Positions 88 through 12,524 are shown, counted from the first letter of the stretch. The stretch is DNA of 64,000 nucleotides from a virus (IMGVR_UViG_3300044970_002549:27158-91157); one strand, 5' to 3'. Notes: generated from the letters alone by a model not told the origin. Numbers and translations are program-made.

Positions 88-301
88 TTTCTACGAGTTC
101 ACGGAGGAGGAGGTTATCGCCTTCGTTCGCGCTCTGGTGCGCGGCGGGGACTTTGCTATTGGGCTTTCGTCAGGTGAGGCCATAGAGCGCGCCATAGACA
201 TCATTGACGAGCCGCACAAGTGGTCGCGTGAGATGACGGCGTGGCGAGCTGCCGGCTCACCATACACCTACACCTACATCAAAGAGGGCTTGACGGACTA
301 G
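74..301 (+). CDS. hypothetical early protein
   Basis: 75-aa ORF with GAGGAG SD upstream. Confidence 0.7.
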   Translation: MAAFSFYEFTEEEVIAFVRALVRGGDFAIGLSSGEAIERAIDIIDEPHKWSREMTAWRAAGSPYTYTYIKEGLTD

Positions 302-361
302 TCTGGCGGCTGTAAGGTGATGGTGTCGGGGCTTCCCGATAGACACAGAGAGGAGTAAGAG
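290..361 (+). promoter_or_regulatory. early cassette 1 promoter, +1 hairpin, GACACAG box and SD
   Basis: TTGACG(290)-17 nt-TAAGGT(313); 6 nt; stem GTCGGG-gctt-CCCGAT (325-340); GACACAG; AGGAG. Confidence 0.8.
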
Positions 362-604
362 ATGGACGAAGGGTTTGAGCAATCGGTCGAGATTCCGTTC
401 AGCAAGTTCTATGTTGCGGTAGCGCGCAAGGTTGAGGCCAAGTGCGGCCTGACCCCTGACGACCTTCCGGACATTGACTTCCGAGCGTTCTATTTGGAGC
501 GCGGTACGATTGAGGAGTACCGAGCAGCAATCGCGGAGTGCGTGTATGCCGTACTCGAAGGCGCAGGGTATCCCTTCGCTGATGAGGACGAGTACTACGC
601 ATGA
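362..604 (+). CDS. hypothetical acidic early protein
   Basis: 80-aa ORF behind AGGAG SD. Confidence 0.75.
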   Translation: MDEGFEQSVEIPFSKFYVAVARKVEAKCGLTPDDLPDIDFRAFYLERGTIEEYRAAIAECVYAVLEGAGYPFADEDEYYA

Positions 605-822
605 CTTCGATTTCCCGCAAGAGTGGTCGCTCGTGGAGTCAGTTCTCCGCTCGTACAAAGGCCGAGTACCTTCGGGAGTCGGCAGCGTGGGAGCGTGAGC
701 AGCGGCGTAGGCTATACATCAAGGGTGCGGTAGTAGTGGTTGCGTTTGCGGCCTTCGTACTCTTGGTGCTAGGATTCGGCGGCACGAGCGATTTCGTGCC
801 TGATGTGAGAGAGGTGGAGTGA
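601..822 (+). CDS. small membrane protein
   Basis: ATGA overlap with upstream stop; hydrophobic segment GAVVVVAFAAFVLLVLGFG. Confidence 0.7.
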   Translation: MTSISRKSGRSWSQFSARTKAEYLRESAAWEREQRRRLYIKGAVVVVAFAAFVLLVLGFGGTSDFVPDVREVE

Positions 823-1082
823 TGAGAGCAGAGGAACTATACGAGATTGGCGACGCAGGGTATCTGCGCGTGGACTTGCGCGACGATCTTTGGGTTGCGC
901 TGATGACGCAGGACGGAGTGAACTTCGGCGGTACGCTCTGGAGGGTATCTGATGGTCAGTACTACTCCGAAGGCTGTACGGCAGGGTATCCTGTGTTTTG
1001 TTTCGCTATGACTTCGGACGAGGCAGCTCGGCAGGTTGCGCTCTATATTGCGATGGAGTCGGGAGCCGAGGCTCTGCTGTAA
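819..1082 (+). CDS. hypothetical early protein
   Basis: GTGA overlap with upstream stop; GAGG SD. Confidence 0.7.
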   Translation: MMRAEELYEIGDAGYLRVDLRDDLWVALMTQDGVNFGGTLWRVSDGQYYSEGCTAGYPVFCFAMTSDEAARQVALYIAMESGAEALL

Positions 1083-1085
1083 GAC

Positions 1086-1158
1086 TTGACGCGGCCTATC
1101 TGGTCGTTTAGAATCGAGGAGTCGGGGCTTCCCGATAAGGCACAGCAAGGAGGAGATA
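1086..1158 (+). promoter_or_regulatory. early cassette 2 promoter, +1 hairpin, GGCACAG box and SD
   Basis: TTGACG(1086)-17-TAGAAT(1109); 6 nt; GTCGGGGCTTCCCGAT (1121-1136, identical to cassette 1); GGCACAG; AGGAGG. Confidence 0.85.
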
Positions 1159-1581
1159 ATGTCGGAAGCGTTTAGGGTCAATGTGAACGAGCAGGGCGAG
1201 TCATGGGTCGAGCGCATCGCATGGGGCGACAAGTCCGGCCTATCAGAGCACTACGCGGCGATTGGCTGCGAGCTCGTCCAAGTCGCAGGGTCGGGTGCGT
1301 TTGGCGGCGTTCCTGTGATTGTGTTCGTAGATGAGGAAGGCCTGTATCGTGAGCCTGTCCTGTTCAATCGTGTGGTGTGCGACTTCGTAGCCGAGGCCAC
1401 CGATTCGGCTCCTGCGTACATGATGGGCGGCGGCCTTGTGGGTCGTGCGCTTGTCTTGTTTGATAGCGGCAGCGATTCTCGCGGATTCACCAAAGAGGAA
1501 GCCGATAGAATCAGCGCGCAGCTCGAACACGGCGGCTATCCTACGCTCTCAATGTTCAGGGAGGACGAGCCGCTAGCGTAG
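1159..1581 (+). CDS. DUF3846-like protein
   Basis: IGCELVQV...VDEEGL...N...LVGRAL pattern resembles DUF3846 phage proteins. Confidence 0.65.
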   Translation: MSEAFRVNVNEQGESWVERIAWGDKSGLSEHYAAIGCELVQVAGSGAFGGVPVIVFVDEEGLYREPVLFNRVVCDFVAEATDSAPAYMMGGGLVGRALVLFDSGSDSRGFTKEEADRISAQLEHGGYPTLSMFREDEPLA

Positions 1582-1599
1582 CGCGTCCCTATTGACTAC

Positions 1600-1640
1600 G
1601 AGGCCGTCGGTGTCTGTGCCACCGGCGGCCTCACTTTATC
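1600..1640 (+). terminator. intrinsic terminator with TCTGTGC loop
   Basis: GAGGCCGTCGGTG / CACCGGCGGCCTC stem followed by a T-rich tail. Confidence 0.75.
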
Positions 1641-1642
1641 CG

Positions 1643-1710
1643 CTCATCATTATCAGGCCGCTATTATCAGACCCCCTACCATAGCCCCCCCCCCATACCC
1701 CACGCCCCAT
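1643..1710. repeat. intergenic (TCA/TTA/CTA)n cluster plus C4-tract module
   Basis: CTCATCATTATCAGGCCGCTATTATCAGACCCCCTACC... with four C-runs. Related modules start near 2333, 3056, 3155, 3789, 4388, 4482, 5478, 5641, 6320, 7107, 7209 and 7930. Confidence 0.8.
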
Positions 1711-1749
1711 CGCTACCGGTAGGCCGTGCCTCTGGTCGAAACTGGGGGC

Positions 1750-1825
1750 TTGACGAACGGCACAGGAGGCTCTACCTTGTATGAGTTGGCACTTGCTAAC
1801 AGCACAGGCACAGGAGGAGGAACAG
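1750..1825 (+). promoter_or_regulatory. early cassette 3 promoter, +1 hairpin, tandem GCACAG boxes and SD
   Basis: TTGACG(1750)-17-TACCTT(1773); 6 nt; GTTGGC-actt-GCTAAC; AGCACAGGCACAGGAGGAGG. Confidence 0.8.
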
Positions 1826-2257
1826 ATGAAAGACCTGACGACACCAGCGCAGAAGTGGCTGCGGGAGTTTCTCGGAACACAGGCCGTAGGGACTTGCCCT
1901 ACTTGCCGACAGGCTCTGCCAGAAGGCTCGTGCTTTCGGGCGTTCGTTCGCTACGGCGACGGCGATGACCTTGTGGCCTACACCAAGACTCGCGGTGAGG
2001 CTCTGGCCGTCCTGATCGGTTGGCGCGATGACGAGTGCGGCGATTCGTTCTGGGCTGATCGAGCAGACACTTGGAGCACCCTAAGCGTCGCGCAAGCGGT
2101 TGCTTTGGAGCACGCACCGGCGGCTCTGATCGTTGCTGCCGATGCTGACGAGAAGGTCTACGATGAACTCTTGGCCGCAGTCGAGTATGACTTCATCGGC
2201 ACACCGCTTGTCGGTGCTGTCTGGGTGGACGACCTTACGGCATACTCCGGCAAGTAG
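1826..2257 (+). CDS. hypothetical early protein with a CxxC motif
   Basis: Start moved to ATG 1826 (MKDLTT) because it follows the SD; CPTC motif. Confidence 0.7.
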   Translation: MKDLTTPAQKWLREFLGTQAVGTCPTCRQALPEGSCFRAFVRYGDGDDLVAYTKTRGEALAVLIGWRDDECGDSFWADRADTWSTLSVAQAVALEHAPAALIVAADADEKVYDELLAAVEYDFIGTPLVGAVWVDDLTAYSGK

Positions 2258-2274
2258 TCCGCTCGATTTTCTAC

Positions 2275-2316
2275 GAGGCCACTCCCCATCTGTGCGGGGG
2301 GTGGCCTCTTTCTATT
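2275..2316 (+). terminator. intrinsic terminator with TCTGTGC loop
   Basis: GAGGCCACTCCCC / GGGGGGTGGCCTC stem followed by TTTCTATT. Confidence 0.8.
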
Positions 2317-2446
2317 CCCTGAGCTTTACGCGGTCATCATTAGGCCGTCATTATGCGCTGGCTATTATGCGACCCCTTACCCCACACCCCGACACCCCAG
2401 ACCCCAGCGGTCGCGGTGCGCGCTCCGAAACTCCGCAGCGGGGGGC

Positions 2447-2524
2447 TTGACGCTAGGCCTCGGTGGGTGTACCTTCGATGTGTTGGGTGGCTATGCTCCC
2501 CCGACTAGCACAGAGGAGAACCAG
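2447..2524 (+). promoter_or_regulatory. early cassette 4 promoter and leader
   Basis: TTGACG(2447)-17-TACCTT(2470); 6 nt; GTTGGG...CCCGAC; TAGCACAGAGGAG. Confidence 0.8.
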
Positions 2525-2986
2525 ATGAAGGGGATGACCTACGAGCAAGCGCGCGAGGTGTGCGCCAAGTTGGGCGGGATGTTCTCCGTCCTGACCGCGT
2601 GGTCTGCGCCGACCACCCCGAAGGAGTTCGACCGCCGCAAGGAGAGCGCGGCGAGCCGTGAGGCCGAGCATCGTCCTATCGGGCGCGTCCAGACGACGGG
2701 CGAGCAAGTGGTAGACGACAAGGGGCGCGTTTCCTTTATGTATCGAGTATCGGGTCAAGTGAATCGGGACGAGCACCCAGAGGGCGTATACCTGACCAAG
2801 AAGGGAGAGCCTTGCGTTGATGTCGTCATCTCCGCTCCAACGGAGTACGGCTACACGACTGCTTGCAAGTACGCGGGAGTCGTCGGCTCGGCGTGTGAGC
2901 GTCGTCGCCCGTTCCACTCCCACCGCACTATCAACCTGACGCGGCTCGTGTCGTGGATGGTGTCGGGAGAGGAGCAGGTGCGCTAG
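2525..2986 (+). CDS. early protein, paralogue of 7392-7844
   Basis: Start moved to ATG 2525; shares GGMFxVLTxWSAPTT, GQVNRD, PEGVYL, APTEYGYTTAC and HRTINLTRLV with 7392-7844. Confidence 0.8.
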   Translation: MKGMTYEQAREVCAKLGGMFSVLTAWSAPTTPKEFDRRKESAASREAEHRPIGRVQTTGEQVVDDKGRVSFMYRVSGQVNRDEHPEGVYLTKKGEPCVDVVISAPTEYGYTTACKYAGVVGSACERRRPFHSHRTINLTRLVSWMVSGEEQVR

Positions 2987-3006
2987 GCCTCGCTTCGATT
3001 CGACCA

Positions 3007-3048
3007 GAGCACCCCGTCGGGCTTCGGCTTGGCGGGGTGTTCTATTGT
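3007..3048 (+). terminator. intrinsic terminator (cUUCGg loop)
   Basis: GAGCACCCCGTCGGG-CTTCGG-CTTGGCGGGGTGTTC followed by TATTGT. Confidence 0.8.
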
Positions 3049-3266
3049 CCGGTGTTTATCATCACGCCGTCATTACTCGACCCCCTACCCCGTCCCCCCA
3101 CCCCCCGCTCCCTCATCTCACTCTGTCGTGTCGTTTGATTCTGTCGAGCTGCTAGTCATCAGGTCATCATCACAGGGCTATTAGGCGACCCCCCATACGA
3201 CCCCCGCACCCCCCTTACCCCATTGCTGGATCGGTCGAGTGCTACCGCTCTGGCTCGTCTTGGCTC

Positions 3267-3343
3267 TTGACGGATTGACCGCTGCCGGCAATACTCGAAG
3301 TGTCGGGCGGCTCTGATCTGCTCGACTAGCACAGGAGGAACCT
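3267..3343 (+). promoter_or_regulatory. early cassette 5 promoter and leader
   Basis: TTGACG(3267)-17-AATACT(3290); 6 nt; GTCGGGCGG...CTGCTCGAC; TAGCACAGGAGG. Confidence 0.75.
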
Positions 3344-3733
3344 ATGTATAGGTTCATCGTATTCGTAAGGCGCGTGGTTGATGGCGTCGAGGATGCCGTA
3401 GGCGACACGCTGACCGCTGCCGGCCCTGACTGGGCGTACGACAAGACAGAGGCTGTCGCTACCGACGGCGGCTATCCTGAACCGATGGCTCACTCGGTCG
3501 CTCGCGGGATGACCCAGGCTGCGTATGCGCTGCTCGGTGGTCTGGACTTCTTTGTCCAAGAGTACGACGCTGAGGATGTCGCGGCAGGGTCGCTGACCCC
3601 AGAGGATAAGGAGATGGCGGCGGCTATCTCACTCGGCCTCCTCCCATCTGACGGATCGGTAGCCTTCGTCTCTGGTCTGGTCAATCGAGCAGACGCCAAG
3701 CCCTTCTGGTTCGTGGTCGCGGTTCACGACTAG
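3344..3733 (+). CDS. hypothetical early protein
   Basis: 129-aa ORF behind AGGAGG SD. Confidence 0.75.
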   Translation: MYRFIVFVRRVVDGVEDAVGDTLTAAGPDWAYDKTEAVATDGGYPEPMAHSVARGMTQAAYALLGGLDFFVQEYDAEDVAAGSLTPEDKEMAAAISLGLLPSDGSVAFVSGLVNRADAKPFWFVVAVHD

Positions 3734-3753
3734 CCGTACCGGTTGCGGTCATC

Positions 3754-3792
3754 GAATCCGTCTCACCCTTCGGGGTGGGGCGGATTCTTTTA
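3754..3792 (+). terminator. intrinsic terminator (cUUCGg loop)
   Basis: GAATCCGTCTCACCC-TTCG-GGGTGGGGCGGATTC followed by TTTT. Confidence 0.85.
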
Positions 3793-3905
3793 TGCCGTCA
3801 TTATCAGCGCGCTATTATGCGACCCCTAGCACCCCTGACCCCGCTCCCCCTTACCCCTTACGCTCTGGCGTGTCGCATGTCTGGCGCGCAGCTCGGCTGC
3901 TGCTA

Positions 3906-3986
3906 TTGACTTGACCGCGCCCGGCCGTATAGACTCATGGAAGTCGAGGGAGTAGGCACAGACCCCTCTCGGCACAGGAGGTCAAG
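3906..3986 (+). promoter_or_regulatory. early cassette 6 promoter and leader
   Basis: TTGACT(3906)-18-TAGACT(3930); 7 nt; GTCGAG...CTCGGC with GGCACAGAC in the loop; GGCACAGGAGG. Confidence 0.75.
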
Positions 3987-4328
3987 ATGACCGAGCAAAA
4001 GAAGGCGACCCTCTGGGTTGTCGAGGTGGTATGGAACGGCGAGCCTCATCGTTCGTTCTATGAGGATCGGGAGGAGGCAATCGCTGGGCTGGTGAGCCTA
4101 GCGGACTTTCTGGCTGACTTCACCAGAACCAACAAGACAGGCAGGGCAACCAATCGGGACTTGGAGACCGCTACGGAGTTTCTGCTAGATGATGACCGCT
4201 CGTCATGGGTTGATTGTTTGGAGATTACCGAGTCTGGCATTTGCCCAAGGTGCGAGGCGATGGTCGGCTGGTCTGGCGGCTACTGCGAGCCGTGCGGCTA
4301 CGAGTTCGGGAATCAACTGAACGACTAA
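3987..4328 (+). CDS. early protein with C-terminal zinc ribbon
   Basis: CPRC...CEPC motif; SD present. Confidence 0.75.
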   Translation: MTEQKKATLWVVEVVWNGEPHRSFYEDREEAIAGLVSLADFLADFTRTNKTGRATNRDLETATEFLLDDDRSSWVDCLEITESGICPRCEAMVGWSGGYCEPCGYEFGNQLND

Positions 4329-4350
4329 CGCGGCCGGGCGAAGGCAACAG

Positions 4351-4383
4351 GAAGCCGTCCCCTTCGGGGGGCGGTTTTTTGTT
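4351..4383 (+). terminator. intrinsic terminator (cUUCGg loop)
   Basis: GAAGCCGTCCCC-TTCG-GGGGCGGTTTTTT. Confidence 0.8.
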
Positions 4384-4595
4384 AGTCCTATTAGGTCATC
4401 ACATCACCCCCTACCCCAGCCCCCCCTTACCCCTAGAATCTCACGGCTTCCGATACGGCCGGTCGGAGTCAATAGTCGCAGCTCATCATTAGTCATCATC
4501 ATCACGCTATTACTTGACCCCCCATACCCCAGCGAGTCCGTTTCCCCTTGCCCCATCTGGTCGTTGCGTCTGGTGCGCCATCTGCTAGGTGGGGC

Positions 4596-4672
4596 TTGAC
4601 GTTGCCCGCACTTCGAACTAGTCTGGTGAGGTCGCAGGCTGGCACAGACCCGAAGCGACACAGGAGGTCTAG
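4596..4672 (+). promoter_or_regulatory. early cassette 7 promoter and leader
   Basis: TTGACG(4596)-17-TAGTCT(4619); 6 nt; GTCGC...GCGAC with GGCACAGAC in the loop; ACAGGAGG. Confidence 0.8.
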
Positions 4673-5167
4673 ATGTTCACGGAAACGAACGCAGATCGGC
4701 TCGTCGAGGTACGGGCAGCAATCAAGACAGCGATGGACTCCCTCACCGAGAAGGAGTTCGCCGCAGCAGCAGAGAGCAACACGGAAGCCGGTGGTGCTAG
4801 CCACCTCGTCGTCGTCCCTGCTGCTTTCTGGAATGACCACACCAGCCGCGACCTTGACTCGGTTTCGGTCGAGGTGCGGTCATCAAGCGCGGAGTGGGGA
4901 CTCTATGATGACGGCTCCTATGTCGTCCTGATGATGACTGACGACTCGCTCGCCGAGTTGGTGTCTGACTCAGCGTACTACTCCACTTCGTTTGATGAGG
5001 AGGACTACGGCTCACTCATGGAGTCGGCACGCCGTACCTTTCTCGCCTTGATGATCCAGTCGTCGGCTGCGCGTAGCCTGTTGGACTCGCGCACTTCCTA
5101 CGACAACCTGCGCTGGGCGTTGGGCTTGGAGCGAACCGATGCCGCAATCATCACTGGTGCGGCATGA
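4673..5167 (+). CDS. hypothetical acidic early protein
   Basis: 164-aa ORF behind AGGAGG SD. Confidence 0.75.
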   Translation: MFTETNADRLVEVRAAIKTAMDSLTEKEFAAAAESNTEAGGASHLVVVPAAFWNDHTSRDLDSVSVEVRSSSAEWGLYDDGSYVVLMMTDDSLAELVSDSAYYSTSFDEEDYGSLMESARRTFLALMIQSSAARSLLDSRTSYDNLRWALGLERTDAAIITGAA

Positions 5168-5394
5168 CTGCCGATGACCGCACTTCGACCTGCTCCGATT
5201 GCGAGCAGGTGCTAGGAGACTCGGCATGGTACGCCGACAACAACGGCGGACTCGGGCTGCTGATGTATTGCGACGGCTGCGAGGAGCGAAGGTCTGAACG
5301 CTATGGTTGCGCTCTCATCATCGCGGAGGGTTGCGGCTGCGTTCCGAGTGGTGCCGATTGCGCCTGTGGTTGCGGGGGTTCTGGGCAACTCTGA
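5164..5394 (+). CDS. small Cys-rich, probably metal-binding protein
   Basis: CSDC, CDGC and CGC...CACGC motifs; ATGA overlap. Confidence 0.65.
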   Translation: MTADDRTSTCSDCEQVLGDSAWYADNNGGLGLLMYCDGCEERRSERYGCALIIAEGCGCVPSGADCACGCGGSGQL

Positions 5395-5416
5395 ACCGCT
5401 GACCGCACTTCGACCT
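5175..5416 (+). repeat. 17-bp perfect direct repeat TGACCGCACTTCGACCT
   Basis: Copies at 5175-5191 and 5400-5416; related copy in the cassette 7 promoter at 4606-4624. Confidence 0.85.
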
Positions 5417-5420
5417 AGAC

Positions 5421-5457
5421 TCGCCCTCACTCTTTCGGGAGTGGGGGCGGTTCTTTT
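5421..5457 (+). terminator. intrinsic terminator
   Basis: TCGCCCTCACTCT-TTCG-GGAGTGGGGGCGG followed by TTCTTTT. Confidence 0.8.
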
Positions 5458-5753
5458 CCCCGGGGTTTAGATAGGGCCATCATCAGGCAACGCCTACCCC
5501 GACCCCCCACCCCATTCGTCAGGCTTGTTTATCAGGTCGTTCATCGGGGGTGTGCTGATACCCCCTAGCCCCAGTTCGTCGCTCTCCGTCGTTCCTACGG
5601 GGTCGTTTTTCTGGCGCGCAGCTGCGACCACGCTCACTCACCTCATTATCGAGCCACAGTCATCAGGTCATCATTGATCCCCTATACCCCACCAGCCATA
5701 CACCGCCCCCCTTCCCCCCTTGCCCCTTTGGCGTTGCGTCTGGTGCGACCCCC

Positions 5754-5831
5754 TTGTATTGCGGCCGTGCCTGTTGTACCTTTCAGATGTCGGGAGGCAA
5801 ATGACCTGCCGACTAGCACAGGAGGTCAGAG
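5754..5831 (+). promoter_or_regulatory. early cassette 8 promoter and leader
   Basis: TTGTAT(5754)-17-TACCTT(5777); 6 nt; GTCGG...CCGAC; TAGCACAGGAGG. Confidence 0.75.
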
Positions 5832-6185
5832 ATGACCAAGGAAGAACTGATCCAGCTACTTCGGGAGAAGCCCGACGCAATGCGAGCCCTGAACGGCGAC
5901 GGCCATGGGCTCTACGCGCCAGAGTGGTACACCGAGGTCGGCTGGCCTTCGGAGATGATCAGCCGGCTCAATGTCGTCCATACCAGCGACGGCACGACGA
6001 AGGGCTCCATGTGGGATCACGAAGGCAACATCATCGCGGAACAGCGAGCTGTGTATTCGCTGGACTTCCATGAGGCCGTTGCCAGCATCGTCGGCACCAC
6101 CGCGCATCACAGCATGTTCGGTCGGGGTTCGGCCGCACGCGCCATCGCCATCGAGGTCAGGGCAATCGTGGAGGTTGGAGCATGA
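5832..6185 (+). CDS. hypothetical early protein
   Basis: 117-aa ORF behind AGGAGG SD. Confidence 0.75.
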   Translation: MTKEELIQLLREKPDAMRALNGDGHGLYAPEWYTEVGWPSEMISRLNVVHTSDGTTKGSMWDHEGNIIAEQRAVYSLDFHEAVASIVGTTAHHSMFGRGSAARAIAIEVRAIVEVGA

Positions 6186-6268
6186 TGGAACTCATCGGTG
6201 AGGCAATCAGCGTTGCGACCTTCCTAGTGGCCGTGATTCTGTTCTTGGGTTGGAACTCAATGGTCTAG
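6182..6268 (+). CDS. 28-aa single-TM microprotein (not in the ORF track)
   Basis: MMELIGEAISVATFLVAVILFLGWNSMV; ATGA overlap, GGAG upstream, ends before the terminator. Confidence 0.6.
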   Translation: MMELIGEAISVATFLVAVILFLGWNSMV

Positions 6269-6290
6269 CCCAGTCCAGCTCGGAGAATCC

Positions 6291-6330
6291 GATGACCCCT
6301 CTGCCTTCGGGTAGGGGGGTCATCATTTAT
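6291..6330 (+). terminator. intrinsic terminator (cUUCGg loop)
   Basis: GATGACCCCTCTGCC-TTCG-GGTAGGGGGGTCATC. Confidence 0.75.
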
Positions 6331-6460
6331 GGCTATTCATCAGGTCATCATTATCAGGTCATAGTGCGACCCCTTACCCCATAGTCCGTGCCGTTCCCCT
6401 TGCCCCTGTCTGCTACTGGTTCTTGGGCAGCTGCGATCTGTTGCGCCTGGTGCGTAGTGC

Positions 6461-6534
6461 TTGCGCTTTTTGGTTGATGTGTTTAGACTCTAACTATCGG
6501 CGGCAATGCTTCGCTGATAGCACAGGAGGAAACT
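6461..6534 (+). promoter_or_regulatory. early cassette 9 promoter and leader
   Basis: TTGCGC(6461)-17-TAGACT(6484); 6 nt; ATCGGCG...CGCTGAT; AGCACAGGAGG. Confidence 0.75.
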
Positions 6535-7047
6535 ATGAACGGCAAGGGCAAAACCGGCGCACAGGCAGCAGTCGCACGAGCCGAGGCGTTGGCTCGGTAT
6601 CCAGAGAATCCAACGGCGGTGATGATCCGACCGATTGAGAGCCTCTATGGTCAAGTGTTCGCGGAGCCGACGAGCGCGATGCTCTCGGTCTTTCTTGCGC
6701 CTCGCGTTGAGATCGCATTGGAGCAGGGCGACCTCTGGCGGCAGCCTGTGAGGGTTGTACGCAAGGTGAACGAGTCAGAGATGACCTTCACCGCCGTCCT
6801 CATCGGTAGGGCAGCGCCAGAGAACGAGGCGATCCTCTGGCAGGGTGGCAACGCCCCAATGATGGGGTGGCTCCCTCTGGACGTCGCAGACTTCGCTGAT
6901 GATCACGATGTGGCGTGGTGGATCGCGTCCTGCTACGACGCTTCTAGCGGGGACGCTTATGCGCTCCATCGTCAGGCAGTCCGCAACATCACCACGAAGG
7001 CACGCGCCGCCTACGAAGCGCAGAACGGAGAGTCCGCTCCCTTCTGA
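6535..7047 (+). CDS. hypothetical early protein
   Basis: 170-aa ORF behind AGGAGG SD. Confidence 0.75.
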   Translation: MNGKGKTGAQAAVARAEALARYPENPTAVMIRPIESLYGQVFAEPTSAMLSVFLAPRVEIALEQGDLWRQPVRVVRKVNESEMTFTAVLIGRAAPENEAILWQGGNAPMMGWLPLDVADFADDHDVAWWIASCYDASSGDAYALHRQAVRNITTKARAAYEAQNGESAPF

Positions 7048-7070
7048 TCAAGTCCGGCGACAGGGCAACG

Positions 7071-7103
7071 GAGCCGATCCCTTCGGGGGTCGGCTCTTTT
7101 GTT
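7071..7103 (+). terminator. intrinsic terminator (cUUCGg loop)
   Basis: GAGCCGATCCC-TTCG-GGGGTCGGCTC followed by TTTT. Confidence 0.85.
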
Positions 7104-7316
7104 AGTTCATCATCAGTTCATCATCAGAGGCCAGTCGCACCCCTTACCCCTAGCCCCGAGTCTTGGCTCGGTCTGATCGAAGCGTGGGCAATCGTCGCAG
7201 CTTACGCGGTTATCATTAGGTCAGTCATTACTCATGAGCCAGTAGGCGACCCCTCTACCCCTTACCCCTCTGGATAGGGCGAGTCCGGCGCAAGGGCAAC
7301 CCGCACCGCCTACCCC

Positions 7317-7391
7317 TTGCGCTGCCCTGTTCTGTGGTAGGCTTTGGTTGTCGGGGGAAGGCACAGACCCGAACCGACAAAGGAGGAAACG
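7317..7391 (+). promoter_or_regulatory. early cassette 10 promoter and leader
   Basis: Extended -10 TGTGG-TAGGCT(7338); 6 nt; GTCGG...CCGAC with GGCACAGAC in the loop; AAGGAGG. Confidence 0.7.
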
Positions 7392-7844
7392 ATGAAGGCA
7401 GGTATGACCTTCGCAGCCGCAAGGGCGGCAGCAGCAAAGAGCGGCGGTATGTTCGTCGTTCTTACTGGGTGGAGCGCGCCGACCACGGACAAATGCCGGG
7501 AGAAGCGACGCGAAGCGGCAGCAGGGCGAGCCGCCGAACACCGCGCCATCGGGCGCGTGAAGGTGGAAGCCACAGCCGAGAACGGCGTGGTGCTGTTCCG
7601 CGTTGCGGGTCAGGTGAACCGCGACCAGTACCCAGAAGGCGTGTACCTCAACAAGAAAGGCGAGCCTTGCGTTGGCATCGTCATCGGAGCCCCGACCGAG
7701 TACGGCTACACGACCGCGTGTCCGTATGCAGGGAAGGCAGGAAGCGCATGCGAGAACCGCAGACCCTTCCACGCGCACCGCACCATCAACCTCACGCGCC
7801 TAGTGGCGTGGGAGATTGCAGGAGAGCAGCAGCCCCTCGGCTGA
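7392..7844 (+). CDS. early protein, paralogue of 2525-2986
   Basis: Start moved to ATG 7392 behind AGGAGG; long identical blocks shared with 2525-2986. Confidence 0.8.
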   Translation: MKAGMTFAAARAAAAKSGGMFVVLTGWSAPTTDKCREKRREAAAGRAAEHRAIGRVKVEATAENGVVLFRVAGQVNRDQYPEGVYLNKKGEPCVGIVIGAPTEYGYTTACPYAGKAGSACENRRPFHAHRTINLTRLVAWEIAGEQQPLG

Positions 7845-7862
7845 CCGCCCGCCAGATTTTGT

Positions 7863-7908
7863 AGAGAGCGCACCCTCCGCCCTTCGGGGTGGGGGGTGTT
7901 CTCTTTGT
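7863..7908 (+). terminator. intrinsic terminator (cUUCGg loop)
   Basis: AGAGAGCGCACCCTCCGCCC-TTCG-GGGTGGGGGGTGTTCTCT followed by TT. Confidence 0.8.
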
Positions 7909-8058
7909 CTGGCCAGCAGTACGGCGTGCCATTACCCGCTCATCGATTTACCCCAACCCCTCGCATAGAACAGATGACCCCCCCTACCCATGCGCGCGCT
8001 ACGTGCAAATCAACATTTGACCAATCTGTGGCGATTACCCCTCAACCCCTCTTCCTGC

Positions 8059-8102
8059 AATAAAAAAGCCCAGGCACATGGCCTAGGCGCTAATTTTTTT
8101 TT
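8059..8102. terminator. probable bidirectional terminator at the junction of convergent blocks
   Basis: A-run, GCCCAGGC/GCCTAGGC stem, T-run. Confidence 0.55.
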
Positions 8103-8110
8103 ACAGAAAA

Positions 8111-8599
8111 TTATCTACGAGCGAGCGAGATACGGCGACAGGCTCTGCACTCTCTCCGGCCCCGTGGAGACCGGTAGGTGTTCTCGTCGGTCCATTCATG
8201 TCCCTTGCTGCAATGCGTGATACGCCCAGCAGCTGCAAGACCGCGGAGTATGTTTATTCTGCACGTCACAGGCTCAAGGTGTTTTGTATTGACACACTTT
8301 CGCACCCTACATAGGTGGTCAAGGTGTAATCCCCTGGCAATAGGCCCAACCTCATAGAGATACGCCCATCGGTGTGCAAGGACCTTCTTCCCTTGGTGTT
8401 TGAATCCACCGTATCCCCTTGAGTCAATCGTACCGGTCCATTCATGGCACCCTGTGGTCTCATTCACATACACAAAAGTTCGGAAACGTACCGCGACTTT
8501 TTCTTCCACTACGGGCTGACAGATGCGACCATCGGTGTGGGGGGCCGCCGCGCGCCCGTAGGCACCCCTAGGAGCGACGGAGAGGCGTGATTCTGGCAC
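8111..8599 (-). CDS. HNH endonuclease with C-terminal zinc finger (start uncertain)
   Basis: CHEWTG...AHRWAY...LDHLCRVRKCVNTKHL...N; THCSKGH...CRAC. Confidence 0.85.
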   Translation of the reverse strand: MPESRLSVAPRGAYGRAAAPHTDGRICQPVVEEKVAVRFRTFVYVNETTGCHEWTGTIDSRGYGGFKHQGKKVLAHRWAYLYEVGPIARGLHLDHLCRVRKCVNTKHLEPVTCRINILRGLAAAGRITHCSKGHEWTDENTYRSPRGRRECRACRRISLARR

Positions 8600-8606
8600 C
8601 TTGGGG

Positions 8607-9005
8607 TCAGAGGGCCTTAGAGGCCTTTGCCATAGCTGTTACGGGGTCTGGGTTGATGGAACGGAGGAACTGTCGCTCAGAAACAGCTTCTGGGTCAAGC
8701 ATCATCCTACGGAGAAGGTCTTCTGCCGTCAGGAAGCCTGCAAATGCCTTTGGTGAACCGTTGGCAATAGAGGTGTAGAGAACGTAGGGAACGCTCTTGA
8801 TGCCGTACTCCTGCACGATAGCAGGGTTCTCATCCACATTTACCTTGATAACGGTAACGTCTTTTCGGAATGACGCGATTTTCTCGAGCTCTGCACTGAT
8901 CGCAACACATGGCTTGCACCATGGAGCCCAAAAATCAACGATAGTTGGCCCTTTCGACAGTGCAGTTGTGATCTCTTGTGATGTGACGGGGGTTGACTGG
9001 GCCAT
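8607..9005 (-). CDS. thioredoxin
   Basis: VDFWAPWCKPC and SVP motifs; start moved to ATG 9005 behind AAGGAG. Confidence 0.9.
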   Translation of the reverse strand: MAQSTPVTSQEITTALSKGPTIVDFWAPWCKPCVAISAELEKIASFRKDVTVIKVNVDENPAIVQEYGIKSVPYVLYTSIANGSPKAFAGFLTAEDLLRRMMLDPEAVSERQFLRSINPDPVTAMAKASKAL

Positions 9006-9028
9006 AACAAACTCCTTATGGGTGACAA

Positions 9029-9056
9029 GAGGGGGCTGGATTTCTCCAACCCCCTC
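9029..9056 (-). promoter_or_regulatory. GAAA-tetraloop hairpin upstream of thioredoxin (terminator or leader)
   Basis: GAGGGGGTTGGA-GAAA-TCCAGCCCCCTC on the minus strand. Confidence 0.55.
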
Positions 9057-9078
9057 AGGAATGAGGTCGCTTATCCTA

Positions 9079-9303
9079 TCAGTTGACGTCGCGTGACGCA
9101 ATGATTCGGGGTGCCTTCATCGATGGTATATCTTCCACCGGCTCTCCAATTTTTTCCGCAATTTTCGCCATTGTGTTGACGAGTTCGGAAAGCACCGGTA
9201 ACACTTTACGCAGCATCGTTTCTCGCTCTGCGCTTTGTTCCATTTCTTGTACTGCTTTTAAATCGTCAGCAATCTGCTGCAAATCGTAGTTCTTCATCAA
9301 CAT
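9079..9303 (-). CDS. hypothetical helical protein
   Basis: 74-aa ORF coupled to the ssb stop. Confidence 0.65.
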   Translation of the reverse strand: MLMKNYDLQQIADDLKAVQEMEQSAERETMLRKVLPVLSELVNTMAKIAEKIGEPVEDIPSMKAPRIIASRDVN

Positions 9304-9686
9304 TAGAACGGAAGCTCTTCAAGCGACTGCTGCATCTCTGCGCGTGAGGAGGTTTCACCCTCACCCTGCTTCTTTGAGCGGCTAAGCACCTGAATGTACT
9401 TTGCGGTGATGGAGATTTCCGTGTGCTCCACATCGTTCTTGTCCGTCCACGAGCTGATTTCCGGCGTTCCCTCGATCCAAATAAGGTCGCCCTTCTGGAC
9501 AATCTTATCGGCAAGCTCTGCACGACCATCCCAACAAGTAATCGGATACCACGTCGACTTCTCTTCACCATTCGCATCCTTTGTGCCATGGACGGCGACG
9601 TTGAAATTCGCCACTGGACGGCCCTTTGCCGTAGAGCGGACGACGGGACGAGCACCAACATAACCAATCAACTGTACCTTAATCAT
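9303..9686 (-). CDS. ssb: single-stranded DNA-binding protein
   Basis: VQLIGYVG...VANFNVA...TW...KGDLIWIEG; acidic tail ending EELPF. Confidence 0.92.
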   Translation of the reverse strand: MIKVQLIGYVGARPVVRSTAKGRPVANFNVAVHGTKDANGEEKSTWYPITCWDGRAELADKIVQKGDLIWIEGTPEISSWTDKNDVEHTEISITAKYIQVLSRSKKQGEGETSSRAEMQQSLEELPF

Positions 9687-10053
9687 CTTCTTCTACCTCA
9701 CTAATCCTAAGTACGATCTTTTCTTCATCGCACTTTTTCTTCAGGGTCCATACACGGGGCATGAACCTTGCATCATTCACTCCGATACCCAGCGCAATCG
9801 CGTCAAGTGTCAGTTTTAATATGTTGTCTGCGTCGATTGAACGCTTCACGTAAATCCACACATCAACCACGAGCATTGTATCACTGTCGCATGCCCATTG
9901 CTGTTCCGCCTTTGCGGCTCCGGCCATGACCGAGACGATCTTCTTCCACTGTTTTGCCTCCCTTGTCATGTAGATGTACGATTTTCGCGCCCGATACGCG
10001 GCATTCCAGCTTGGCGGACGGCCGTTGATCGTTAATTCGAGCGCGGACGACAC
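9679..10053 (-). CDS. rusA: RusA-like Holliday junction resolvase
   Basis: PPSWN...DADNILKLTLDAI...ND motif. Confidence 0.85.
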   Translation of the reverse strand: MSSALELTINGRPPSWNAAYRARKSYIYMTREAKQWKKIVSVMAGAAKAEQQWACDSDTMLVVDVWIYVKRSIDADNILKLTLDAIALGIGVNDARFMPRVWTLKKKCDEEKIVLRISEVEEDD

Positions 10054-10749
10054 CTACTTGGCCGACTTCCGTAGACCTGGACGCAAATCTTTGCCAGAAG
10101 ACTCGACAACAGCGCATGTTTCAAGCAATCGGGAGACGGTCGCACCGTATCCAAGGTCGTACAGCTCATTAATTGAGCGGTTCGACGTCACAATTGTCGG
10201 CAACATTGCTGAATATCGGCTTTCGACAAGCACATAGAGGCGTTCTGTCGCCCAATCGGTCGCTTTTTCTTTGCCGAAGTCGTCTAGAACCACCAACGGA
10301 GCTCGTTTGCAGCTGTATTGGAAGTCTTCTTGCGCCTCGGCATCGTCAAATTTGAACGATGTGCGAATTGCATCAAGGAAAATCGGCACGTTAAAGAACT
10401 TTGGCCCGACAAGGCCTTCCATAATGCGAGAATTCATCGCCGCGGCAGCCAGATACGTCTTCCCGGTGCCAGGCGCACCCAAGAGAAAGAACCCTTGGTC
10501 AGCAAGCGGCTTTGACGCCCAGTCCAGCGCGGTCTTTGCTGCTTTTGTCTCCTTGATTTCTGGCAGCAGTGACGAAAGCGACGCACCTTGGTAGCGAATC
10601 GGCATTCCAGACTGGTTAATCCGCTTATATGCAACCTCAGGCGTTGGCACTGTCGAAGACCCCTTGACCTGTCCGTTTGACATGATCGTTACGAAGTCCA
10701 AATCTGGGACAATTTCACTAATTTTCTTTGGCTCATTCTCTTTCGACAT
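10054..10749 (-). CDS. DnaC/IstB-like AAA+ helicase loader
   Basis: Walker A GAPGTGKT, Walker B LVVLDDFG, RY...PTIVTSN, SRL. Confidence 0.9.
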   Translation of the reverse strand: MSKENEPKKISEIVPDLDFVTIMSNGQVKGSSTVPTPEVAYKRINQSGMPIRYQGASLSSLLPEIKETKAAKTALDWASKPLADQGFFLLGAPGTGKTYLAAAAMNSRIMEGLVGPKFFNVPIFLDAIRTSFKFDDAEAQEDFQYSCKRAPLVVLDDFGKEKATDWATERLYVLVESRYSAMLPTIVTSNRSINELYDLGYGATVSRLLETCAVVESSGKDLRPGLRKSAK

Positions 10750-11038
10750 ACTGATCGTAGTCCTCCTTGCGGCTACTTACTTCGTCAGACCACTTTCTGG
10801 TCATTGAGAGCTTCTTTACATACGCAAACGGGTCACCGCTCACATCACGGATTGCCGCTTCGCAGATTGCAGACATCAGGGCCGGGATTCCGCCAGGAAA
10901 TGCAGCCATGAGCTGCGCAATTCGCCCATAATCGGTGCGTTTCATTGGTTTTCCGGTTACCGCAGTGAAGAAGTCTCCGATTCTGCCCTGTCGGTTGCCC
11001 GACTGCTCAACATCGACGCGCCACTGCGCCAGCGTCAT
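10733..11038 (-). CDS. hypothetical protein, possibly the initiator-like partner of the loader
   Basis: Start moved to ATG 11038 (ATGA overlap); lies immediately upstream of the DnaC-like gene. Confidence 0.6.
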   Translation of the reverse strand: MTLAQWRVDVEQSGNRQGRIGDFFTAVTGKPMKRTDYGRIAQLMAAFPGGIPALMSAICEAAIRDVSGDPFAYVKKLSMTRKWSDEVSSRKEDYDQYVERE

Positions 11039-11916
11039 CGTACTAGCTTGTCCAACGTGCTGTTCCTGATTCCCGGCAGAACTTCTAACATCTTTTTCTT
11101 TGTTTCTGGTAGCTTTTGTGGGTGCGACTCCCATTGGTTGCACAGCCTCCTATACTCACACGACGAGTGCACAAATGCCGTAGGATTTGGATAGATCGCG
11201 CCCTTTTCGCGCGCGTCCAAGATTGCCCTAACGGTAATGTACAGCTGGTCGATATCATCCTGCGTTCGCGTTGTTACGCGACGCTCCACATTCGGCCCCT
11301 TTGAGTGCTTAGAGATGATGTTGAACGTCACCTTCGGGTCGTGACCGTGATTCTGTCGAATCGCATTCACATAAGCGGTGGCCTGTGCATCTCCATGCTC
11401 TCGGCCAGCCTCCCACTTTCGGTCCGCCGTCTTGTGCTCGACTACATCGTTCTCTTTTGTCACCATGTCCAGCACCGACTTGAGCTTGATCGGCAGTTTG
11501 CCGAGCCTGCTGTGTTCGATGTCGGCCATGAAGGTCCGCTCAACCGCGCTTGCCGTCCAGTCATCACCTTCCAGCAGTGCGGCCTTCAACATATCCTCGC
11601 CCAACGCGCTTTCGCTAATCGGATTCTTGTCCTTTTCCTGCGTCCAGTCGATTGTGGCCGACTCCTTGGCGTAGGTGGACTTAAATGCGTCGATTGCTGG
11701 GGTAAGGTCGCCAATTTGCTTGCCGCCGCCAAAGGGCTCGTACCAGCTGGCAAGTCCAGCATGGACTGACGTACCGAGAGCAAAAAAGCTCGTCTGCTTG
11801 TCGGTCCAGAGGCCCATGCCATACCGGTACCACCAGCGCAGCGGACACGCCATAAACTCGCGGATCTCGCTGACGCTGATGTGCTTCTTTTCGAGCGTGC
11901 TATCTGGTATCTGCAT
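11035..11916 (-). CDS. PD-(D/E)XK RecB/AddB-like exonuclease
   Basis: SVSEI...CP, GTSVH, VE, LD...EHKT, QxxxY and C-terminal C..C motifs. Confidence 0.85.
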   Translation of the reverse strand: MQIPDSTLEKKHISVSEIREFMACPLRWWYRYGMGLWTDKQTSFFALGTSVHAGLASWYEPFGGGKQIGDLTPAIDAFKSTYAKESATIDWTQEKDKNPISESALGEDMLKAALLEGDDWTASAVERTFMADIEHSRLGKLPIKLKSVLDMVTKENDVVEHKTADRKWEAGREHGDAQATAYVNAIRQNHGHDPKVTFNIISKHSKGPNVERRVTTRTQDDIDQLYITVRAILDAREKGAIYPNPTAFVHSSCEYRRLCNQWESHPQKLPETKKKMLEVLPGIRNSTLDKLVR

Positions 11917-12524
11917 TAGGAGAAGTCAGCTTTTCGGGTGTTATAGAACACCGCAAGCCACTTCTTTGCATCAGCCCCAAGCTTCGATGACGCAATCTGT
12001 TGCGCAACCGTATTGAGGTCGGTGATCGATGCGGCACCGTTGATGGCCTCTCGCCAATCGACAAGCTCGTCTGTTGGCTCAAAGACTTCCGCTGCTGCGC
12101 GGAGCACCTCTTCGTCTGCAATCTTCTGCGATTCGCGCTTTGCAACAACGTCTCCGCCCTTTGAGCGAATCTCATCGTTTGACGCAACCTTCTTTGATGG
12201 AAGGCCTGCCATTACGAGCGCGCGGCCCACAGCCGACGTCTCGCAGTTCTCGATTTCAGAACCCCGCGTGTATGGCGTAGCGCCCGGAATCTGCATGGCG
12301 CTGTGGCCAATGCCTGCTGGACGATCGTCCACAAAGCCAAGCCTTTCGTCAAGCCCGTTGTCTTCCTTGACGCCGCGATAGGCTCGCGCCTCAATGACCA
12401 CGCGCTTCTCCGTGTGCTCAAGAAGCCGCGTTTCGATTCTGCCGTTTGGGTACGCTTCGTACCATGCCCGGATGCGCTCTGCGACATCAACGTAATCCTT
12501 AAGTGCGCTCTTGTCGAATGCCAT
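11916..12524 (-). CDS. Rad52/Sak-like single-strand annealing protein
   Basis: DYVDVAERI...ENCETSAVGRAL motif; adjacent to the exonuclease. Confidence 0.7.
   Translation of the reverse strand: MAFDKSALKDYVDVAERIRAWYEAYPNGRIETRLLEHTEKRVVIEARAYRGVKEDNGLDERLGFVDDRPAGIGHSAMQIPGATPYTRGSEIENCETSAVGRALVMAGLPSKKVASNDEIRSKGGDVVAKRESQKIADEEVLRAAAEVFEPTDELVDWREAINGAASITDLNTVAQQIASSKLGADAKKWLAVFYNTRKADFS

Follow-up and report, generated by a model that had tools for sequence, protein, structure and literature searches.

The stretch of DNA analysed here, called the window in the following, comprises 64,000 nucleotides (nt) and corresponds to bases 27158-91157 of a virus genome that is represented in IMG/VR by a single-contig record of 91,157 bp (IMGVR_UViG_3300044970_002549). 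The first 8 kb of the window contain an array of ten units that are located at positions 290-7990 on the plus strand and are built according to one pattern: a sigma70-like promoter, a hairpin at the predicted transcription start site, a short sequence box, the Shine-Dalgarno (SD) sequence AGGAGG and one to three small open reading frames (ORFs). The composition of this array and its comparison with related virus loci indicate that it probably represents a row of tandem, autonomous transcription units that have been shuffled by recombination at their shared control DNA.

The virus record carries an exact terminal direct repeat of 188 bp (genome positions 9-196 and the last 188 bases), is classified as 'linear' in IMG/VR and has a CheckV completeness of 100%; the genome is probably complete. 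Its genes for a large terminase, a portal protein, a head protease, a major head protein and a head-tail adaptor, along with an ORF of 3,549 amino acids (aa) that specifies the tape-measure protein, characterize the virus as a siphovirus-type phage. The portal protein shares at most 25% identity with that of any cultured phage, and a DNA search of the 50,697 deposited phage genomes of INPHARED in near and distant modes yielded no nucleotide match. Accordingly, the genome is that of a siphovirus without a cultured relative. No tRNA genes were found in the window. Tyrosine or serine recombinases, an integrase or a resolvase were not found across the complete genome, and no match to PF00589, the family of IntI-type tyrosine recombinases, was obtained in the complete genome, with all control genomes being matched. 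The first-pass annotation of the window had described the array as integrase-free, which agrees with these searches, and the phage appears to be virulent, as neither an integrase nor a resolvase was found.

The array is part of an early-gene block that spans genome positions 17.6-35.2 kb and is located entirely on the plus strand, with a divergent promoter at 17.1 kb. Promoter-hairpin leaders that are devoid of the CACAG box, of terminators and of spacers extend back to genome position 18.4 kb, and the array therefore constitutes the distal half of a single rightward early block.

The common scaffold of the array units

The positions and components of the ten units are compiled in Table 1. All ten promoters that had been proposed in the first-pass annotation are present in the sequence, as are the terminators at the ends of units 2-10 and the spacers that follow them, and the genes of units 4 and 10, described as duplicated, are paralogues with 67% aa identity. 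The GCACAG box assigned to every unit is present in its exact form between hairpin and SD sequence in seven of the ten units only, being replaced by ACACAG, GACACAG and GACAAAG in units 1, 7 and 10, respectively. The ten units do not represent the full extent of the system either, since an eleventh unit with the same grammar (unit 0) was detected upstream of the window at positions -658 to -585 relative to its start, in addition to the leaders that continue to 18.4 kb.

Table 1. Features of the array and of the adjacent convergent module; positions refer to the window, and letters denote cassettes defined by clustering with related loci
Feature	Position	Strand	Components
Unit 1	290..1082	+	Promoter 290-318; leader hairpin 324-341; ACACAG and AGGAG; ORFs 362-604, 601-822 (one predicted membrane helix) and 819-1082
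Unit 2 (cassette A)	1086..1749	+	Promoter 1086-1114 (TTGACG-17-TAGAAT); hairpin 1121-1136; GCACAG; ORF 1159-1581 (weak DUF3846 match); terminator 1600-1632; G-poor spacer 1633-1749
Unit 3 (cassette B)	1750..2446	+	Promoter 1750-1778; hairpin 1785-1800 (GUUGGC/GCUAAC, one G-U pair); GCACAGGCACAG; ORF 1826-2257; terminator 2275-2308; spacer
Unit 4 (cassette D, copy 1)	2447..3266	+	Promoter 2447-2475; hairpin about 2482-2505; GCACAG; ORF 2525-2986; terminator about 3007-3040; spacer with two repeat modules
Unit 5 (cassette E)	3267..3905	+	Promoter 3267-3295; hairpin 3302-3326; GCACAG; ORF 3344-3733; terminator 3754-3787; spacer
Unit 6 (cassette F)	3906..4595	+	Promoter 3906-3935; long hairpin 3943-3973 with GGCACAGACCC in the loop; ORF 3987-4328 (C-terminal CxxC...CxxC); terminator about 4352-4375; spacer with two repeat modules
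Unit 7 (cassette G)	4596..5753	+	Promoter 4596-4624; hairpin 4631-4659; ORFs 4673-5167 and 5164-5394 (Cys-rich); terminator 5421-5450; 300-nt spacer with three repeat modules and orphan terminator-like hairpin 5584-5602
Box GTTGCGTCTGGTGCG	4563-4577 and 5733-5747	+	
Unit 8 (cassette H)	5754..6460	+	Promoter 5754-5782; hairpin 5789-5813; GCACAG; ORF 5832-6185; 28-aa hydrophobic ORF 6182-6268; terminator 6291-6324; spacer
Unit 9 (cassette I)	6461..7316	+	Promoter 6461-6489; hairpin 6494-6520; GCACAG; ORF 6535-7047; terminator 7066-7101; spacer with two repeat modules
Unit 10 (cassette D, copy 2)	7317..8060	+	Promoter 7317-7343 (TGnTAGGCT, extended -10 type); hairpin 7350-7378 with GGCACAGACCC; ORF 7392-7844; terminator 7870-7899; terminal spacer, no cassette beyond
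Bidirectional terminator	8052..8109	.	Junction of the rightward array with the leftward replication/recombination operon
Convergent module	8111..12524	-	HNH endonuclease, thioredoxin, SSB, RusA-like resolvase, DnaC-like loader, exonuclease, 202-aa ORF
PD-(D/E)XK exonuclease	11035-11916	-	Family confirmed
Possible single-strand annealing protein	11916-12524	-	202 aa

The promoters were scored against a sigma70-like consensus. They consist of a TTGACG-like box, a distance of 17-18 nt and a TAnnnT (or AATACT) box, with the exception of unit 10, in which a distance of 15 nt is combined with an extended TGn -10 box, and the sequence 5' of the -35 box is G-rich (GGGGCTTGAC). A positional test was applied to 100 distinct cassette upstream regions from the window and from related loci. 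At least eight of the 12 consensus positions were matched in 50% of these regions, compared with 8% of shuffled sequences and 13% of coding windows, and in 49 of the 50 upstream regions reaching this score the -35 box begins 65-84 nt in front of the ATG start codon.

In 123 of 126 distinct promoter-led leaders, a predicted stem starts 3-8 nt past the -10 box, that is at the expected start site. The base of the leader hairpin consists of GUCGG...CCGAC or of a covarying version and is followed by (U)AGCACAG, AGGAGG and ATG; 13 of the 34 plus-strand copies of GCACAG in the genome are located within the 8 kb of the array. The loops of units 6, 7 and 10 contain GGCACAGACCC. A set of 49 distinct tetraloop hairpins revealed many different stems, with a loop that nearly always reads RNUU (ACUU in 19 cases, GCUU in 11, AGUU in 8 and GAUU in 5) and in which the last two positions are nearly invariant, one being T in all 49 hairpins and the other in at least 90%. 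The stem covariation score of this set was 0.73, compared with 0.21 for column shuffles, none of 500 reaching 0.73, and with 0.13-0.21 for slid partners. Moreover, the same stem was recovered independently by RNAalifold from twelve leaders of cassettes E, I and J that had been aligned by sequence alone; four of its seven pairs showed compensatory double changes, and the AGCACAG box was invariant.

The stems contain 46 G-T pairs and only 7 A-C pairs, and this excess favours an RNA structure of the plus strand. It bears directly on the alternative that the hairpins act as DNA, in the form of cruciforms or single strands that serve as promoters of an N4-like phage polymerase or as recombination hot spots. 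The hairpins do adjoin promoters, and in the promoter-early stem-loop (PeSL) elements of T4-type phages some crossovers were mapped inside the stem-loop (PMC2839356). On the opposite strand, however, the many G-T pairs of the stems become A-C mismatches, and sigma70-like boxes are present at a fixed distance upstream, which makes a function as DNA highly improbable. The candidate for a virion RNA polymerase that N4-like hairpin promoters would call for, the 3,549-aa ORF, turned out to be the tape-measure protein, and such promoters were rejected.

A search of Rfam yielded nothing at threshold within the array. The sub-threshold hits to archaeal C/D-box small RNAs on the minus strand (4380-4423 and 6298-6355) result from TGATGA/CTGA words that are complementary to the TCATCA repeats and are almost certainly due to chance.

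Terminator-like sites are clearly enriched in the array, with 22 sites compared with 5.6 +/- 2.5 in shuffled sequences. The spacers that follow the terminators of units 2-10 are 100-300 nt in length, G-poor, unstructured and composed of TCA-type repeats and C4 tracts. They share a repeat family with 8 copies of 36 nt (GTCATYATCA..GCTATTAnGCGACCCCYTACCC), and the composition of their core is 40% C and 18% G. Runs of C4 are concentrated between the genes, with 64 runs in 2,299 intergenic nt versus 5 in 4,180 coding nt. Over the entire genome, 13 clusters of three C4 runs were counted; ten of these belong to the array, all on the plus strand, and a similar polarity was observed in related loci, with 184 clusters on the plus strand versus 4 on the minus strand. 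No inverted repeats were found in the spacers, the intergenic inverted repeats being the terminators and leader hairpins only. The exact spacer 14-mer CGACCCCTTACCCC gave only scattered single matches to unrelated contigs across IMG/VR, consistent with chance. Four spacers contain two or three repeat modules (2987-3346, 4329-4675, 5395-5834 and 7048-7394), one of them together with the orphan terminator-like hairpin, and these multi-module spacers and the orphan hairpin look like the scars of deleted cassettes.

The 13 ORFs that represent the cargo of the cassettes are mostly devoid of functional predictions. No match above threshold was obtained from Pfam or PHROG for 12 of them, and these searches yielded weak matches for units 2 and 6 only, to DUF3846/phrog_25534 (weak, sub-threshold) and to a zinc ribbon (weak), respectively. 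Several of the cargo ORFs are Cys-rich, and two encode tiny membrane peptides. The G+C content of the cargo is 61%, whereas that of the portal gene, the tape-measure gene and the early genes located upstream is 53-54%. The gene of cassette D, present in units 4 and 10, has no Pfam or PHROG match and homologues in this lineage only, and its AlphaFold model (predicted local distance difference test score of 79) retrieved no fold from PDB at E<=0.001. A tblastn search of cultured phages with cassette A likewise gave no match. The role of the cargo in host takeover or anti-defence that had been proposed for the array is a reasonable guess.

Two further elements were observed upstream of the window. 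At about -1194 to -1110 (L103:8806-8890), just past the stop codon of a 164-aa early ORF, two successive hairpins are located, the second of which is a terminator. Both carry the loop GGCUCCUCCCA, which resembles an anti-Shine-Dalgarno sequence and is complementary to the GGAGG sites of the early leaders. Weak sub-threshold Rfam matches were obtained to two small RNAs with C-rich loops, namely sX13 and ar14 (29 bits, cut-off 58.8). None of the loci of the 22 relatives described below contains this element, which may represent a small RNA or an element of the 3'-untranslated region that masks ribosome binding sites. At about -1043 to -660 (L103:8957-9340), the best promoter match of the region (TTGACA-18-CATAAT) is followed, directly 5' of unit 0, by about 360 nt without an ORF that is led by a ribosome binding site; this stretch matched no Rfam family and is a candidate for a non-coding RNA.

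Cassette order and exchange boundaries in related loci

At least 80 loci with a related portal gene (54-81% identity) were detected in IMG/VR, and 22 loci contain a homologue of the duplicated gene D, all of them using the grammar of the array. The ORFs of these 22 loci were clustered with those of the window, which resulted in the definition of cassettes A (unit 2), B (unit 3), D (units 4 and 10), E to I (units 5-9), J and K. The block upstream of the cassettes, including units 0 and 1, is collinear in all loci; unit 1, which is devoid of a terminator, comprises the ORF clusters 5/1/2 in a fixed order in 22-23 loci. The order of the cassettes is variable: it is ABDEFGHID in this phage, ABDEFGID in L081, ADBGDEFJD in L084, ADBGDEFID in L085, DABDFEJD in L087, DABDFEGJD in L093, ABDIFEGD in L098 and AKDBD in L090. 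With respect to shared single-copy genes, 33% of the adjacencies are broken in the array versus 4.7% in the upstream early block. Cassette H (unit 8) was seen in no compared locus except this genome, and gene J is part of the proximal block in this phage and of the array in others.

A tree of 46 copies of gene D revealed old paralogue clades and one tight clade of nearly identical genes that spans the three contexts u1c.D.A, A.D.B and K.D.B, from which it follows that A and D swapped places between close relatives. The leaders of cassette E in L084-L093 resemble the leader of cassette I in this phage, one leader type being combined with different cargo, and gene J is preceded by three different leaders across the loci. 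The first-pass annotation had named collinearity of related phages as an observation that would contradict an exchange of cassettes; the relatives are non-collinear in the array, with breaks inside the shared scaffolds.

In distant complete relatives (portal 56% identical), the promoter and the leaders with ACTT tetraloops are retained, and gene D and the C-tract spacers are lacking. The leader hairpin therefore predates the scaffold of the cassettes. At the start of one such genome (L165:1200-4900; G001, complete, 90.8 kb, portal 56%), several TTGACA-17/18-TAnAAT promoters are present, and an ACTT-tetraloop hairpin and AGGAG are located behind each of them.

The edges of the exchanged segments were mapped by BLASTN comparison of the same cassette in two loci, including flanks of 450 nt. 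When the neighbouring cassettes were the same, homology extended through the full flanks in 258 of 377 pairs upstream and in 193 of 288 pairs downstream. When the neighbours were different (identity of at least 80%), the left edge clustered at about -70 to -80 from the ATG, corresponding to the -35 box, with smaller groups at -16, -142 and -195 to -218, and the right edge was located either in a cluster at +50 to +85, which is just past the terminator, or in one at +134 to +145. For pairs of cassettes with an identity of 96-98% and different neighbours, the homologous segment is limited to about -70/-142 to +55/+82. In cassette B, L083 and L087 show 97% identity between -77 and +82 and are unrelated beyond these limits, and in cassette D the identity of L085 and L087 amounts to 96% between -69 and +58. 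Over cassette G and its entire spacer, this phage shares about 95% identity with L081, and the two sequences diverge exactly at the 15-nt box GTTGCGYCTGGTGCG, a direct repeat that is located just 5' of the -35 boxes of unit 8 (5733-5747) and unit 9 (6440-6454). Since the divergence coincides with this box, unit 8 was gained or lost between its two copies. A second clean indel concerns the small ORF K of L090, which is located between the leader hairpin and the SD sequence of a D cassette and is flanked by the repeated leader sequence CCGG..AGCAGTAGG. The junctions thus occur at several positions of the scaffold, each in repeated sequence, which argues for homologous or short-homology recombination between direct repeats and against a single recombinase site. 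The comparison shows that cassettes have been deleted, duplicated, inserted and permuted in this lineage, apparently via the repeats in their control DNA.

An integron-like, site-specific system would attribute the same rearrangements to a phage or host recombinase that moves single cassettes at the spacer repeat (GTCATCATTA...GCTATTAnGCGACCCCYTACCCC). The repeat is indeed present between almost all cassettes (8 copies), it is strand-polarised across the lineage, and some spacers contain two to three modules, as if intervening cassettes had been removed. We nevertheless consider such a system very unlikely, with respect to the lack of an encoded tyrosine or serine recombinase, to junctions that are distributed over the -35 box, the leader and the region just past the terminator instead of one site, to spacers without the inverted repeats typical of attC-like sites and to the presence of a promoter on every cassette.

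Proposed expression and recombination of the cassettes

According to the model of tandem autonomous units, a host RNA polymerase of the sigma70 type would start the transcription of each unit early, about 75 nt in front of the ATG. The resulting mRNA would begin with the stem-loop, preceded by at most 1-2 unpaired nt, and this structure would most likely protect the mRNA from decay that depends on the 5' end or be bound by a common regulator. Stem-loops at the 5' end shield the ompA transcript from RNase E and RppH, and similar structures shield transcripts from RNase J. The single-stranded (U)AGCACAG box that abuts AGGAGG may provide a second, sequence-specific signal at the ribosome binding site. 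One to three small ORFs and an intrinsic terminator would close each unit, and the C-rich, G-poor spacer might act as an insulator, either by a rut-like entry of Rho behind the terminator or by a G-quadruplex on the template strand.

The approximately 250 nt of similar control DNA that all units share in direct orientation would at the same time represent the substrate of recombination; the crossovers are located in the box 5' of the -35 region, in the -35 region itself, in the hairpin/SD region, just past the terminator and within the spacer. General homologous or short-homology recombination, plausibly by the exonuclease/annealing module of the phage itself, could account for these exchanges, and no dedicated site-specific recombinase would be needed. 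A candidate for this machinery is the convergent module that adjoins the array (Table 1). The first-pass annotation had named a Sak-like/exonuclease pair (11035-12524) in this context; the assignment of the exonuclease to the PD-(D/E)XK family was verified, whereas the label 'Sak-like' goes back to a weak language-model neighbourhood. The respective 202-aa ORF has no Pfam or PDB match, and its sole lead is a weak ESM-Atlas neighbourhood of PF27148 clusters, one of which includes 10% Sak members. At the other end of the module, the gene of the HNH endonuclease (phrog_826, PF13392; 8111-8599, minus strand) adjoins the distal end of the array and the bidirectional terminator.

The same constant elements would also be expected if the repeats served gene expression only and shuffling were a by-product. 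The hairpin and the AGCACAG box would then bind a common regulator that switches the whole early set, for instance a translational repressor, a RegB-like nuclease or a lambda N-like antiterminator, and the C-rich spacers would be Rho or G-quadruplex insulators. This explanation is in line with the constancy of the AGCACAG box and the RNUU tetraloop among varying stems, with the persistence of promoters and ACTT-tetraloop leaders in distant relatives that lack the spacers and gene D and with a spacer composition compatible with rut-like sites. It is likewise compatible with the shuffling evidence, from which it differs only in the target of selection, but no candidate regulator was identified in this analysis and an antiterminator acting at every promoter would defeat the terminator of each unit. 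We regard a role in expression only as unlikely. A more far-reaching proposal, which we consider rather doubtful, is that the spacer and the RNUU hairpin with its AGCACAG box are purpose-built parts of an integrase-free cassette platform, in which the spacer would stall polymerases or load Rho and thereby focus template switching or recombination between units, while a single phage factor would bind to the hairpin and box and thus control the cassettes jointly.

The preferred interpretation, a tandem array of autonomous units shuffled at their control DNA, has to be weighed against several points that speak against it. A strict scan for consensus promoters detected 3 sites, with 2.8 expected by chance, and the -10 boxes match the consensus poorly; as the strict scan is at chance level, the support for the promoters is positional. 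The single-sequence folding energies of eleven leaders correspond to z-scores of +1.0 to -2.6 and are not individually significant, and since these scores are too weak, the case for the hairpins is based on position and covariation. The percentage of paired positions in the set of 49 hairpins is circular, because the set was selected on predicted hairpins. The numbers of compared pairs overstate the number of independent events, because several of the related loci are near-duplicates. Finally, the early timing of expression is what we infer from promoter type and gene size, and the identity of the acting recombination enzyme is purely inferred.

Comparison with known cassette systems

The array resembles an integron in being a unidirectional series of small, mostly unknown genes, the number and order of which vary between relatives. 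In contrast to integrons, it contains neither IntI nor attC-like imperfect palindromes, the junctions are not located at a fixed site, and every unit has its own promoter-like site and terminator, whereas integron cassettes are promoterless and read from a common promoter. An integron was ruled out on the grounds that the genome encodes no recombinase and that the spacers contain no inverted repeats.

The host-takeover module of phage SPO1, reportedly described by Stewart and co-workers in 1998, is similar in that small early genes are densely arranged in short operons that are each provided with a strong early promoter and ribosome binding site. It has no sequence relation to the array, and SPO1 is not known for a spacer repeat common to its units or for a permutation of cassettes between relatives.

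Morons of lambdoid phages are said to have been defined by Juhala and co-workers in 2000 as a promoter, a small ORF and a factor-independent terminator. As a rule, morons are inserted singly into the late region of a temperate phage, and it is the prophage from which they are expressed. Units 2-10 correspond to this scheme, as each of them consists of a promoter, one or more ORFs and a factor-independent terminator, as units separate genes that directly adjoin each other in relatives (unit 8 is missing in L081, and the presence of others is variable) and as the G+C content of the cargo deviates from that of the surrounding genome (61% versus 53-54%). They differ from morons in that at least nine units are chained in an early block with a single regulatory scaffold and no integrase. 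Expression from a prophage does not apply to this phage, which lacks an integrase and a resolvase and, as far as its genes indicate, is apparently virulent.

The closest known system is that of the PeSLs, a class of mobile regulatory cassettes found in T4-type myoviruses (Arbiol et al. 2010, PMC2839356; Comeau et al. 2014, PMC4122927). In PeSLs, a stem-loop terminator is located inside the promoter or overlaps it, either between the -35 and -10 boxes or on the -10 box. The whole element is compact (about 100 bp), its upstream part is AT-rich, and the SD sequence and the start codon are located at its 3' end (PMC2839356). Excised mini-circles that can be detected by inverse PCR are a further characteristic of PeSLs. 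Both systems repeat a sigma70-like early promoter, a terminator and an SD sequence between small ORFans in a plastic region of the genome, and in both the insertions, deletions and replacements between close relatives are bounded by repeats, an integrase is absent and recombination between the repeats is the proposed driver. The parallel to PeSLs drawn in the first-pass annotation was therefore apt: matching promoter, terminator and SD repeats surround ORFans, and indels are bounded by repeats without an integrase.

Differences between the two systems concern the phage as well as the parts of the scaffold. The carrier of the array is a siphovirus of 91 kb that is unrelated to the T4-type myoviruses and has a G+C content of 52%. 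The terminator of the array is a separate element, located 100-300 nt upstream of the next promoter with the G-poor spacer in between, and the promoter-proximal hairpin is situated 3-8 nt downstream of the -10 box and hence within the transcript. Moreover, the sequence upstream of the -35 box is G-rich in the array and AT-rich in PeSLs, and the AGCACAG box and the C4-tract/TCA-repeat spacer of strict strand polarity are further distinctive parts of the array. The view that the scaffold is unlike any described system consequently applies to its parts, whereas the arrangement as such has precedents in PeSLs and morons; the integrase-free nature of the array and its shuffling at the scaffolds, which had been proposed as well, were retained.

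Three defined elements, the 5' hairpin with its RNUU tetraloop, the AGCACAG box and the strand-polarised C4-tract spacer, are thus available for considerations of mRNA stability, coordinated control and insulation, and about a dozen portable ORFans represent natural candidates for screens for host takeover and counter-defence functions. The array is, on the basis of these comparisons, best described as a shuffled cassette array of the PeSL kind that was built from different parts in an unrelated siphovirus. The earlier basis of this mechanism consisted of a few pairs of T4-type phages; the comparative evidence presented here is unusually clean, since cassette orders are permuted, junctions could be mapped and the same genomes provide a collinear block as a control, and it extends the shuffling of self-expressed small genes at regulatory repeats from the T4-type phages to an unrelated, uncultured and probably freshwater lineage of siphoviruses.

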